Shown: in pieces, positions 12,621 through 21,403 of the stretch | How positions within the stretch are numbered: position 1 is the first letter of the stretch | Layout: each line of letters opens with the position of its first letter | Source of the DNA: Myxococcota bacterium | GTDB taxonomy: Bacteria; Myxococcota_A; UBA9160; UBA6930 | Direction of reading: 5' to 3' | Length of the DNA: 64,000 nucleotides | Assembly: GCA_028277885.1 (NCBI GenBank) | Contig: JANQFK010000062.1 | Coordinates: forward strand, 16,685 to 80,684 | Translations under genes and position numbers: made by a program | Notes under the pieces: model-generated | Seen by the model: only the letters and a program-made list of their open reading frames with translations | The model's database searches: none | Told to the model about the DNA's origin: nothing

Positions 12621-13415
12621 GTGGACTGGATCGAGGCGACACTGCTGGGCTTCGTGCAGGGGCTCACCGAGTTCCTGCCCGTGTCGAGCTCCGGCCACCT
12701 CGTGATGGCCGAGCGCCTGCTGGGCGTCCACACCGAGGGCGTGCTGTTCGAGGTGATCGTCCACGTCGGCACGCTGGTGGCCGTGCTGTGCTTCTACCGC
12801 CACCGCGTGCTGGCGCTGGTGCGCGGCACCCTCTCGGGCGGCCAGGACGCCTGGCGCTACGTGGGCAAGCTGGGCCTCACCGTGCTGCCGGGCGCCGTCG
12901 CGGCCTTCACCGCCCGCGACTTCCTCGAGAGCCTGTTCGACCGCCCCGCCGTCACGGGCTTCGCGCTCCTCGCCACCGGCGTCATCCTGTGGACGACGCG
13001 CCGCACCCTCGGCGCCGCCACCCGGGACGAGCCCCGCTGGATCGACGCCCTGGTGATCGGCTGCGCCCAGGTGCTCGCCATCGTGCCCGGCATCTCGCGC
13101 AGCGGCACCACGGTGGCGTGCGCGCTGGCCCTCGGCGTGGCCCCGCTCGCCGCCGCCGAGTTCTCCTTCCTGATGTCGCTCCCCGCCATCGCGGGCGCGG
13201 CGCTGCTCCAGATCCCCGACGCCCAGGCGGTGGGGGGCGACGGCCGGGCGACCCTCCTCGTCGGCGGCGCCATGGCGGCGGTCTCGGGCCTCGGAGCGCT
13301 CTGGCTCTTCGTCCGCGTGCTCCAGCAGCGGACCTTCCACCAGTTCGCCTGGTACACCTGGGCCGCGGGGGCGGTGTTCCTGGCGTGGCTGTGGCGGGCG
13401 GGCGCCGGCCCCTGA
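12621..13415 (+). CDS. uppP: Undecaprenyl-diphosphate phosphatase
   Basis: QGLTEFLPVSSSGH, PGISRSG, AAEFSFL. Confidence 0.95.
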   Translation: MDWIEATLLGFVQGLTEFLPVSSSGHLVMAERLLGVHTEGVLFEVIVHVGTLVAVLCFYRHRVLALVRGTLSGGQDAWRYVGKLGLTVLPGAVAAFTARDFLESLFDRPAVTGFALLATGVILWTTRRTLGAATRDEPRWIDALVIGCAQVLAIVPGISRSGTTVACALALGVAPLAAAEFSFLMSLPAIAGAALLQIPDAQAVGGDGRATLLVGGAMAAVSGLGALWLFVRVLQQRTFHQFAWYTWAAGAVFLAWLWRAGAGP

Positions 13416-13516: not shown

Positions 13517-14782
13517 ATGGCGGACATCTTCATCAGCTACAAGCGCGAGGAGCGCGCCTCGGCATCCGAACTCGCGACCGCGCTGGCCGAGGAAGGCTGG
13601 TCGGTCTGGTGGGATCTCGAGCTGGTGGGCGGCGAGCGCTTCGACGACAAGATCGAGGAGGAGCTGAACGCTGCGGGGGCCGTCGTCGTTCTGTGGTCCC
13701 TACGATCCGTCGTTTCCGACTTCGTGAAGGACGAAGCGACACGCGCCCTCAAGCTCGAGACACTCGTGCCAGCGAGGATCGAGCTCGTCGACCCGCCGCT
13801 CCGCTTCGATCGGCTCGACACGATCGATCTGATCGGATGGAACGGAGACAGGAATCACGCCGGCTACAGAAGACTTCGTGCCACTCTCGTCAAGAGGCTC
13901 GGTGAGCCTCCGGCAAAGGCGCAGGACGTCGTGTCCGGATCGGAGGCGACAGATGACGCGCTGGCCGCCCAGGAGACGGAGCCCGACGCCGAGCGTCGGG
14001 CCTCCGAGGCGGTAGTCGAAGCCGCGGAAGCCCAACGGCTGCCGCTGGAAGAGGCCGTGTCCCCACCACGAGCCGAAGCGGCTCCCCGCGAGAGACGCAC
14101 CCAGGTGCTGGTCCCCATGGGTGCGGTGGTGGTCTTGCTGCTGGTTGCCGCCCTTCTCTACTTCTTGCCTGCCGGGACCTCGCGCGATTCTCCGGAAGCC
14201 GTGCCCGAGCAGGTCGTGCTCGTTGGTCCCCTCTCGGATACCGGCGCCGAGCGCGTGGTCAGGGACTACCTGGCGAACGAGCTCGCCGTGCTGGGCGATC
14301 CGTCACTCTCGACGGCCGAGGCGCACGCACGCCTGCTGGAGCTGGCCAGTGCGTTCTTCGACTACGAGACGATGGCGCGTCTGACGGTCGCTCGAGGCTG
14401 GAGGGGCTTCGATGAAGACCAGCGCAACCGGTTCTTGGAGCAGTTCAGGCGGTCTCTCACGAGCCGGCGTGGAGACCCCGTCGAGCAATACCAAGCCGTT
14501 GCCGCGGAGGTCCGGCCGGCGAACCCGGAGCTACGGGGGGATCTGACGGTGCCTGTCGAGCTCCTCGGTGTCGGTGCTGCCGAGCCGATCGAAATCAGGT
14601 ATCGGCTCCGGGGCGACGCGGGCTCCTGGCGAGCGATCGACCGAATCGTCGCGGGAGCGAGCTTCACCACGCTGACGCGCGCGCGCTTCTCGAAGATCCT
14701 GGAACGCGGCGGGCCGGAGGCACTCATCGACCACGTGCGCGAGATCAACGAGAACCTCGCCGCAGAAGCGATCTCGCCATGA
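13517..14782 (+). CDS. TIR domain - transmembrane helix - MlaC/Ttg2D-like phospholipid-binding domain fusion protein (421 aa)
   Basis: MADIFISYKRE..WSVWWD..VVVLWS..SDFVKDEA (TIR_2); TM VVVLLLVAALLYFL; FFDYETMARLTVARGW..QRNRFLEQF..IRYRL..WRAIDRIVAGASF..RARFSKIL..GPEALI (MlaC-like). Confidence 0.8.
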   Translation: MADIFISYKREERASASELATALAEEGWSVWWDLELVGGERFDDKIEEELNAAGAVVVLWSLRSVVSDFVKDEATRALKLETLVPARIELVDPPLRFDRLDTIDLIGWNGDRNHAGYRRLRATLVKRLGEPPAKAQDVVSGSEATDDALAAQETEPDAERRASEAVVEAAEAQRLPLEEAVSPPRAEAAPRERRTQVLVPMGAVVVLLLVAALLYFLPAGTSRDSPEAVPEQVVLVGPLSDTGAERVVRDYLANELAVLGDPSLSTAEAHARLLELASAFFDYETMARLTVARGWRGFDEDQRNRFLEQFRRSLTSRRGDPVEQYQAVAAEVRPANPELRGDLTVPVELLGVGAAEPIEIRYRLRGDAGSWRAIDRIVAGASFTTLTRARFSKILERGGPEALIDHVREINENLAAEAISP

Positions 14783-14810: not shown

Positions 14811-16190
14811 CTACGGCTCCAGGATCGGGTGCAGCTGCTGGGCCGGCGGGGTCTCGCGGAGCTTCTTCAGCGCCCGGGCCTCGAGCTGGCGGACGCGCTC
14901 CCGGGAGAGGCCGAGGCTCTGGCCGATCTGCTCCAGGGTGTGCTCCTCCTCGCCGCCCAGGCCGTAGCGCAGGCGCAGGATGAGCTGCTCGCGGTCCGAC
15001 AGGCTCCCGATCAGGTGGCCGACGCCGACGCGGATGCGGTCGTCGTCGATGCCGCCGTCGGGGATCACCGAGGCGGGGTCCGAGACGAAGTCCTCGAGGC
15101 GCTTCTCGGTGCCCGCCACCGACGACTCCAGCGAGATGGCCTCGCGGGAGAGCCGGTCGAGGGCCTCGAGAGCCTCGCGCTCCGTGCCCAGGGCCGGGGC
15201 CAGCTCCGCGGGCGTCGGCTCGCGGCCGAGCTTGCCCGTGAGCTCCGCCTTCACGCGCTGGCTGCGCTGCAGCCGGTCGTGGACGTGGGAGGGCAGGCGG
15301 ATGGTGCGCGAGTGGTTCTGGATCGCGCGCACCAGGGCCTGGCGGATCCACCACACCGCGTAGGTGGAGAACTTGAAGCCGCGGCGGTGGTCGAACTTCT
15401 CCACCGCGCGGATCAGGCCCAGGTTGCCCTCCTGGATCAGGTCCGGGAAGGAGAGGCCCAGGTTGCGGTAGTCCTTGGCGATGGCGACCACGAGCTTCAG
15501 GTTGTGCTCGATGAAGCGGTTCTTCACCAGGGACATGCGGTCGTGGGCGTCCTCGATGCGGCCGACGGCCTCGAGGAGGTCGTCCTTGGTGAGGCCGCAG
15601 TCCTGCTCGAGCTCCTTCAGGCGGCGGGTGCCGCGGCGGGCGCGGCGCAGGTCGCGCGCGAGGGCGAGGGCGCGCTCGCGCAGCTCGGCGAGCACCGCCA
15701 GGGAGAGGTGCATGGCCTCCATGTCGCGCACGATGGCGGCGTCGACCCGGGCCAGGGCGGTGCGGGTGCCGCGCTTGCCCACCATCCCGTCGCGGCGCTT
15801 CAGGTGGCGGCGCAGCCGCTGGACCGCGCGCTCCACCCGGGTGGCGATGTCGCTGGTGTCCTCTTCGCCGACGGCCTCGGAGAGCTTGGCCCCGGTGTGG
15901 GAGAGGGCGCGCAGCCGGTCCCAGCGGTCGACGACCCGCTGGGCGGAGGTGGGCAGCGCGTAGATGGCGCCGCGCAGCTCGGCGGTGGCGGCCTCCAGCT
16001 CCTTGGCCAGGACCACCTCCTCCTCGCGCTTCAGGGTCCGGGTGCCCCCGATCTCCTGGAAGTAGGACTCCAGGGGGCGGCGCTCGCGCGCGGCGTCCAG
16101 GTCCTCGGCGGGGAGCACCGCTCCCCGGGTGGACCCGGCACGACGCGCATTGCCGCGGGTGGCTGCCTGGTAGCGTTCCTCGAACTTCAC
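14811..16190 (-). CDS. Sigma-70 family RNA polymerase sigma factor (RpoD/RpoS-like, no region 1.1)
   Basis: Region 1.2 [14 protein letters not shown]; region 2 [42 protein letters not shown]; region 4 [15 protein letters not shown]. Confidence 0.92.
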
Positions 16191-20971: not shown

Positions 20972-21403
20972 GGCGGGAGGTGGACTGTAAGCCGGGTTCT
21001 GTCTCGTGCCCGGGTCACCCCGGACGCGGAGAGGATCATTCGTCTAGGCACCGCATTGCTGCGGCGCTCGAGCGCTCTCACCCGGACGTCGGCGCCGGAG
21101 CGCGCGGACGGGCCATCCGCAGCGACGTCCCTATTCGAGCTTGCTCCAGGAGGGGTTTGCCCCGCCGCCGGTCACCCGGCCGTCGCGCGTGGGCTCTTAC
21201 CCCACGATTTCACCCTTGCCTGTGCCTCCCCCGCGCGTCCTCTCGAACGCGCGGGATCGCGGGCCATCGGCGGTGTGGTTTCTGCGGCACTTTCCCTCGG
21301 GTCGCCCCGGGTCGCCGTTAGCGACCTCCCTGCCCTGTGGAGCCCGGACTTTCCTCCCACGGGCGGTGGTTGCCCGTCGGCGATCCTCCGTCCACCTCCC
21401 GCC
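20972..21403 (-). ncRNA. rnpB: RNase P RNA, class A
   Basis: Minus strand carries GAGGAAAGTCCGGGCTCC, GGAAAGTGCCGCAGAAA, GGGTGAAA..GGTAAGAGCCCAC and CAGAACCCGGCTTACAG; the ends (GGCGGGAGGTGGAC / GTCCACCTCCCGCC) pair as P1. Confidence 0.97.

Follow-up and report, generated by a model that had tools for sequence, protein, structure and literature searches.

What might a bacterial protein do in which a TIR domain is joined through the membrane to a domain of the MlaC/Ttg2D family? An earlier note on this DNA had read the gene as a candidate phospholipid-sensing TIR receptor, and our analysis addresses both the make-up of the protein and the sensing role proposed for it. The gene is located in a stretch of 64,000 nucleotides, referred to as the window in the following, and consists of one open reading frame of 421 amino acids without interruption. 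Its parts and the two neighbouring genes are as follows.

13517..14782, plus strand: gene of the TIR-TM-MlaC fusion (421 aa, GC3 0.80), an insertion between uppP and a sigma-70 gene
13517..13900, plus strand: TIR_2 domain (aa 1-128), predicted to be cytoplasmic
13733..13735, plus strand: codon of Glu73, in helix 68-79
13907..14101, plus strand: linker rich in Ala, Glu and Pro (aa 131-195), with R191, R193 and R194 at its end
14102..14170, plus strand: one predicted transmembrane helix (aa 196-218), hydropathy peak 2.74
14171..14245, plus strand: short stalk (aa 219-243) of about 25 residues, predicted from sequence to be periplasmic
14246..14755, plus strand: MlaC/Ttg2D-fold domain (aa 244-413), with a remodelled pocket and an unchanged docking cleft
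14468..14470, plus strand: Arg318, aligned with the lipid-facing core gate Tyr105 of E. coli MlaC
14642..14644, plus strand: Arg376, aligned with the lipid-facing Met166 of E. coli MlaC
12621..13415, plus strand: uppP/bacA, left flank, given for context only
14811..16190, minus strand: sigma-70 family gene, convergent, right flank, given for context only

Domain architecture and topology

The TIR motifs IFISY (residues 4-8), WWD (31-33) and SDFVKDE (67-73) are present in the fusion protein. Pfam searches placed TIR_2 at residues 4-120 (E 3.1e-20, 73.3 bits, cut-off 28) and MlaC (PF05494) at residues 265-408 (E 1.8e-27, 96.6 bits, cut-off 26), both over their cut-offs. A Kyte-Doolittle profile in 19-residue windows showed a single strongly hydrophobic peak (2.74 at residues 197-215), and the only other window above 1.3 (1.54) falls inside the TIR domain. 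R191, R193 and R194 lie on the N-terminal side of the transmembrane helix and an acidic stretch lies on its C-terminal side. Hydropathy and charge distribution together suggest an N-in/C-out topology of the protein.

AlphaFold2 modelling gave an MlaC fold for the C-terminal domain (pLDDT 87.9) and a TIR fold for the N-terminal domain (pLDDT 90.6). All 12 Foldseek matches of the MlaC-domain model at E<=0.001 were MlaC/Ttg2D structures (best TM 0.82), and the possibility raised earlier that the C-terminus is no MlaC fold is thereby answered. The closest solved folds to the TIR model were those of SPARTA TIR-APAZ proteins (TM 0.77-0.83 in the top ten) and SARM1. Pfam, hydropathy and predicted folds thus agree on the order that the earlier note had read from the letters, namely an N-terminal TIR, a linker, one TM helix and a C-terminal MlaC domain. 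The receptor-like layout stands as well, with an intact enzyme-type TIR, one TM helix and a predicted outside domain. The fused MlaC domain scored below the NCBIfam MlaC cut-off (24.8 vs 195), as did its stand-alone relatives.

Insertion at the uppP/sigma-70 junction

Both flanks of the fusion gene were identified, and it does stand alone between uppP and a convergent sigma-70 gene. An excess of A/T-ending codons over its neighbours, which had been judged by eye, was borne out by the codon profile: GC3 is 0.803 in the fusion gene against 0.972-0.995 in six neighbouring genes. Values this low were found in 113 of 4319 crudely called genes of the genome, and 339 of the 421 codons are GC-ending where 409 would be expected from host usage (z = -20.6). 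Among 24 uppP loci of relatives, uppP and the sigma gene directly adjoin in 19 (sigma end <=300 nt from uppP); one of the others carries a methyltransferase in the slot and four are without a sigma gene inside the 1.5-kb flank. Furthermore, one contig of run X2 joins the uppP and sigma ends directly, with 25 letters on its short side. From the low GC3 and the abutting genes in the relatives we conclude that the fusion gene is a lineage-specific insertion at this convergent junction, as the suggestion of acquisition had implied.

The insertion at a convergent junction makes the position of the gene uninformative on its function. A functional link to uppP was considered and rejected, the slot being empty in most relatives and otherwise occupied in one. 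The gene found there encodes a SAM-dependent methyltransferase (L042:590-1489, genome G007), so unrelated genes have entered this junction on at least two occasions. Apart from short chance-like pairs, no flanking direct or inverted repeats were found at the fusion gene.

The two halves are alike in GC3 (TIR 0.815, MlaC 0.825), which argues that the fusion is not brand-new. A second assembly, a Logan contig of 1881 nt representing the other member of the 90% cluster, encodes the same 421 residues. The sample of origin is probably the same, given that a fraction of 0.98 of the words occurs in run X1, a run labelled coral metagenome; as a separate assembly giving an identical fusion the contig makes a chimera, one of the concerns of the earlier note, unlikely. 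Contigs built from the filtered reads of 82% of run X1 did not cover the gene, a gap that carries no weight.

Distribution of the TIR-MlaC pairing

The TIR-MlaC fusion is known from one genome only. A word-index search gave 57 matches out of 8000 scored candidates with lengths of 231-737 aa, and both domains occurred only in the query. When the MlaC region was compared with proteins of 231-737 aa, 1 of 6687 matched, which was the query itself, and a search with the MlaC domain alone returned 1 of 1463, a stand-alone MlaC at 38%. With phmmer, 20,718 of 1.84 billion representatives of any length matched at E<=0.001, TIR and MlaC matches counted together; apart from the query the best 150 matches were on the TIR side, and among 203 fetched proteins the MlaC part was matched only by the query and one stand-alone MlaC. 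A metagenome scan found six loci with TIR only and no fusion, and a scan of genomes by pattern yielded 159 matches, none with the fusion. Atlas look-alikes, all with scores <=0.80, consisted of TIR, TIR+YARHG and stand-alone MlaC clusters, which serve as leads only.

The fusion was likewise absent from 192 other genomes of the order, one TIR-TM gene there (L091) being cut at its 3' end so that its C-terminus was partly seen. MlaC matches at E<=1e-20 were present in 150 of the 193 genomes of the order, host included, with listed identities of at most 39% outside the fusion gene. This TIR subfamily was detected at E<=1e-12 in two of the 193, again including the host. The other genome (G110) contains two stand-alone TIR-TM genes, L091 and L092, whose outside domains were not recognised and which have no MlaC in the part seen. 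In the mostly open-access literature we found no description of a TIR-MlaC fusion or of any other MlaC fusion, and nothing on envelope TIR decoys or on MlaC as a toxin or phage receptor. The pairing with MlaC had been singled out as the unusual part of the protein, and with no second case in any search and none among 201 TIR relatives we agree.

The TIR domain and its relatives

The TIR domain keeps all 23 positions that are conserved in >=90% of 201 homologues and all 39 that are conserved in >=80%, and Glu73 is invariant across the 201; as the homologues were retrieved with this very TIR, agreement at conserved sites is favoured. Glu73 falls at the same position as the conserved Glu of the TIR in PDB 6wt6, which is the catalytic residue of enzymatic TIRs. 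The domain is an enzyme-type TIR, intact at the conserved sites, for which NAD cleavage is predicted.

By a crude hydropathy rule, 74 of the 201 TIR relatives have one TM helix followed by at least 60 further residues and 106 have no TM helix. Pfam domains identified in the 74 included FGE-sulfatase (8), TPR (5), PG_binding_1 (3), PEGA (3), WD40 (2) and ricin-B lectin (2), besides single cases of OmpA, amidase, SBP_bac_3, ankyrin, fn3, Ig and trypsin, among others. Many are without a recognised outside domain and none has MlaC. The ectodomains are often envelope-related (PG_binding_1, OmpA, amidase, solute-binding and lectin-like domains). In view of this variety the fusion gene can be regarded as one instance of a modular TIR-TM-ectodomain class, of which it has the N-terminal TIR of the subfamily, the linker, the single TM helix and a folded C-terminal domain. 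Tandem double TIR domains were observed in 16 of 202 TIR proteins (P0058-P0065, P0069, P0076, P0077 and others), in some of them followed by a TM helix and an ectodomain.

Divergence of the MlaC domain

The host genome encodes a complete normal mlaFEDAC operon elsewhere (contig C23). With a normal MlaC available from this operon, the fused third copy is surplus for transport. A second, divergent MlaC-family gene is convergent with an mlaA-like gene and adjoins a large membrane-protein gene (L002, G000:C30:121507-125819); this locus is possibly of the hopanoid type (HpnM/HpnN) of lipid transport.

For comparison we used 44 distinct MlaC sequences from 48 relatives' loci, with duplicates dropped. 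The fused domain is on average 34% identical to these relatives, among which the identity is 50%. Of 35 near-invariant positions it has lost 10, and each of the 44 relatives 0-7 (median 1). The tree does not resolve its placement; the branch leading to it has a length of 2.58, the median being 0.27. A profile of the 44 relatives scored the fused domain at 142.5 bits, E. coli MlaC at 62.6 and its own members at >=230; as the relatives were picked by similarity to the fused domain, an origin of the MlaC half within the lineage is likely, and not more than that.

Individual residues were mapped on the deep mutational scan of E. coli MlaC (PMC10245069, supplement file 1). E. coli MlaC is 16% identical to the fused domain, so this mapping rests on the alignment, in which the register of beta2 was set by hand. 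Y105 is described as a conserved gate at the core of the pocket and A108, Y112 and E169 as gates at its mouth (PMC12153054). Y105 corresponds to Arg318 in the fusion, a position that is Tyr in 44 of 44 relatives, and M166 to Arg376, where all 44 have Val or Ile; Arg occurs at either position in none of them. E169 is replaced by Ala379 and A108 by Pro321, each of which is likewise found in 0 of 44 relatives, and E180 is replaced by Arg390. Altogether four of five gating positions deviate. The Arg residues at Y105 and M166 together with the deviating gates indicate that the pocket is remodelled and not canonical.

The docking surface gives a different picture. Residues of the cleft in the outward MlaD pose, the same cleft that takes the tail of MlaA, were deviant in 0 of 9 cases (the tenth is a gap), whereas residues of the inward pose only and of the pocket mouth were deviant in 6 of 10 (cleft vs mouth, Fisher p = 0.011, in a post hoc grouping). 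Measured against the domain-wide baseline of 58 deviant positions out of 167 (35%), p is 0.021 for the cleft and 0.092 for the mouth. Several of the cleft residues are also structural. Taken together, the lipid-facing sites deviate at the baseline rate (6 of 15), and four of these six are still apolar.

Some of these changes are tolerated in E. coli. Y105A showed partial complementation (PMC10245069, supplement file 1), and E169Q and E180A were reported to have no effect on growth or transport (PMC11289387). These losses thus need not end lipid binding. Nevertheless, ordinary phospholipid sensing by the fused domain, as the earlier note had it, appears doubtful, since the residues at the positions of Y105 and M166 are both Arg and most gates have changed.

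Possible functions of the fusion protein

TIR enzymes of this type are turned on by head-to-tail oligomerisation, and the cleft of MlaC binds the beta6-beta7 loop of MlaD and MlaA's C-terminal tail. The explanation that we tentatively favour, at a probability of roughly one in three, is an inner-membrane receptor with a non-shuttling MlaC-fold ectodomain that docks on Mla proteins of the host and controls clustering of the predicted NAD-cleaving TIR. The cytoplasmic TIR would be joined through the TM helix to the periplasmic MlaC domain, the stalk would keep this domain near the inner membrane, which is the site of the MlaD ring, and the retained cleft face may dock on the ring and on MlaA. 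More than one MlaC can bind to the MlaD ring (PMC10245069), and the extent of local TIR clustering could therefore be set by docking. In a guard or decoy role, a disturbed envelope or Mla machinery might then lead to TIR clustering and NAD cleavage. The NADase of SPARTA requires TIR clustering (10.1101/2023.07.12.548734).

Consistent with this receptor, the TIR is under constraint (0 of 23 and 0 of 39 conserved sites lost) while the MlaC half has diverged, and within the MlaC half the cleft is kept while mouth and gates have changed. The MlaC of the host makes the fused copy unnecessary for transport, and the many TM-bearing TIR relatives often carry envelope-related ectodomains. On the other side, the pairing was seen in one genome, so that its conservation and dN/dS are not measurable, and the contrast of cleft and mouth was drawn post hoc, with the mouth at only p = 0.092 against baseline and the lipid-facing class not exceeding it. 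It also counts against the proposed docking receptor that the Y105A, E169Q and E180A changes are partly or fully tolerated in E. coli, that the locus has no defence neighbours and that the genome, which is 89.6% complete, yielded no match to the SIR2_2 or caspase families. A narrower form of the proposal, which we hold to be unlikely as it stands, is that of an integrated decoy: a transport-dead copy of the MlaC of the host lineage would sit beside the MlaD ring, wired to a TIR NADase, and tampering with Mla by a phage, toxin or predator would result in NAD cleavage.

The domain might instead have been repurposed as a ligand sensor, which is possible but on balance improbable. Its pocket, with three new Arg residues (318, 376 and 390) and the loss of Glu169, would prefer an anionic, damaged or foreign lipid, e.g. 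a lyso-lipid or a fatty acid, and binding would cluster or release the TIRs. The charge changes are all towards positive, the predicted fold is intact, nine of the 15 pocket-lining sites are unchanged and four more still apolar, and some members of this TIR family carry solute-binding ectodomains (SBP_bac_3 in P0007, Peripla_BP_6 in P0021 and P0022). However, Arg at lipid-facing sites harms E. coli MlaC, where A163R and A168R failed to complement and V68R complemented partly (PMC10245069). A tethered MlaC would also need a donor for loading, and it is the mouth residues involved in transfer that have changed.

It is rather unlikely, too, that the MlaC domain is an incidental passenger. The TIR and TM helix would then form the working unit, and an MlaC gained by shuffling would drift under fold-only constraint as a periplasmic anchor or spacer. 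Such drift would fit a branch about ten times the median, an ectodomain slot that is highly interchangeable and the lack of a second MlaC among the 201 relatives. The same genome has a foreign-looking TIR in frame on a native MFS transporter, an indication that chance TIR fusions occur. What speaks against a passenger is that frame, TM helix, stalk and fold are all intact despite the heavy divergence, that the cleft surface is kept (p = 0.021 against the 35% baseline) and that the halves share one GC3, so that the fusion is not brand-new.

A canonical MlaC that binds phospholipid and signals to the TIR when the envelope is damaged or foreign phospholipid is present is quite improbable; it has the confirmed fold and the tolerance of single changes at E169 and E180, with Y105A only partly defective, in its favour, but is at odds with the Arg residues at Y105 and M166, which none of the 44 relatives has, and with the four deviating gates. 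It is very improbable that the gene arrived recently and is silent or without function, or that it arose in assembly. Its status as a singleton, the lack of a sigma-70-like promoter in the search (none is expected by chance either) and the lack of a listed RNA run, which says nothing in either direction, are outweighed by the same 421 residues on the Logan contig, which is probably from the same sample in a different assembly, by the perfectly conserved TIR and by flanks that both match conserved gene order.

Comparison with known systems

The enzymatic TIRs (SPARTA TIR-APAZ, SARM1, AbTir/PdTIR/BtTir; Pfam TIR_2, PF13676) share the fold of the TIR domain (TM up to 0.83) and the alphaC Glu, and profile matches were obtained to 7uxr, 3h16 and 7uwg. 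These are soluble, with nucleic acid, metabolites or filament formation as triggers, whereas in the fusion a TM helix links the TIR to an outside domain and the activity of the TIR is predicted only. Closer in layout is the bacterial class of TIR, linker, TM helix and variable ectodomain, with TIRs up to 60% identical, the same order of parts and stand-alone genes; an MlaC ectodomain was found in 0 of 201 fetched and 0 of 74 Pfam-scanned relatives. Fusions of TIR with FGE/FGS have been described, with the FGS domains treated as intracellular sensors and, in the part of that source drawn on here, no description of a membrane layout (PMC8195603). TIR proteins with TM helices occur in some E. coli defence systems (PMC11350192). 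Diverse bacterial TIR architectures are covered by PMC7075850, PMC8195603 and PMC11350192, and the TIR-TM-MlaC layout does not appear in the parts of these sources used here.

With the MlaC/Ttg2D shuttles (PF05494; E. coli PDB 5uwa, Neisseria 8dte) the fusion shares the fold and the cleft residues for MlaA and MlaD, and its mean identity to MlaC from the order of this organism is 34%. The shuttles are soluble and periplasmic, whereas the fused domain is membrane-tethered, with Arg at Y105 and M166 and an altered mouth and gates. Moreover, 47 of 47 MlaC loci of relatives lie beside mlaA, whereas the fusion gene has no mla neighbours.

With Thoeris (types I-XI) and further systems of TIR signalling the fusion has in common a TIR that could produce a signal derived from ADPR. 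Weak matches, confined to the TIR, were obtained to models of ThsB, TIR-SAVED and ThcB4 (ThcB4 26.6 vs cut-off 220). PADLOC likewise matched only the TIR part of the protein, and the gene has no defence neighbours; evidence in favour of a part in defence against phages or predators was not found, nor was any to the contrary. SIR2_2 and Peptidase_C14 were not found in the 89.6%-complete host genome. Without an adjacent effector gene and without a SIR2_2 or caspase match, the fusion gene falls outside the definition of Thoeris. The TM helices in Thoeris belong to the effectors, and the part of the source on which this rests makes no mention of the periplasm (10.64898/2025.12.03.692087).

Animal Toll-like and IL-1 receptors share a TIR inside, one TM helix and a sensor outside. 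Their TIR is, however, C-terminal and of the adaptor type, with LRR or Ig domains, whereas the fusion has an N-terminal enzyme-type TIR, neither LRR nor Ig and an inverted topology. Plant NLRs with integrated decoy domains contain a copy of a host protein fused to an immune module; the decoy logic would be the same, and the fusion is without NB-ARC. The likeness to Toll-like receptors and NLR decoys is an analogy and not homology of whole receptors. By prediction the fusion protein would work as a TIR of the SPARTA/SARM1 type that is coupled to an outside domain in the manner of Toll-like receptors. By defining features it belongs to none of Thoeris, Toll-like receptors and MlaC shuttles.

The gene is a real, single-copy case of a broad and uncharacterised TIR-TM-ectodomain class, to which the MlaC ectodomain is the new part. 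Membrane-spanning bacterial TIR proteins are abundant, and about one third of the fetched TIR relatives have a TM helix and an ectodomain, most ectodomains of the class being without a known ligand. In the mostly open-access literature searched we found no paper on how any membrane-spanning bacterial TIR protein is triggered. For MlaC, structures have been solved, partners are known and a complete mutational scan is available; ligand, partner and activation are therefore directly testable here. Since the fusion is a single gene of one uncultured genome, it carries general weight as a test case for the class. If it does guard the Mla system, the fusion would represent a trans-envelope decoy receptor in bacteria.

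Further observations in the host genome

The second TIR fusion of the host genome consists of an MFS_2 sugar transporter running in frame into a C-terminal TIR_2/SEFIR domain (L004:1438-3393, minus strand, G000:C89). Its MFS_2 part has native codon usage (GC3 0.99) and its TIR_2/SEFIR part looks foreign (0.84); the fusion is apparently recent. Inside the window, an RNase P RNA gene was identified at 20972-21399 on the minus strand (Rfam RF00010, 244.5 bits), which is ordinary. A lone gene of low GC3 (0.70) with a C-terminal TIR_2 domain is located between high-GC3 genes (L007, G000:C76:52117-52788) and shows the same pattern of a single-gene insertion.
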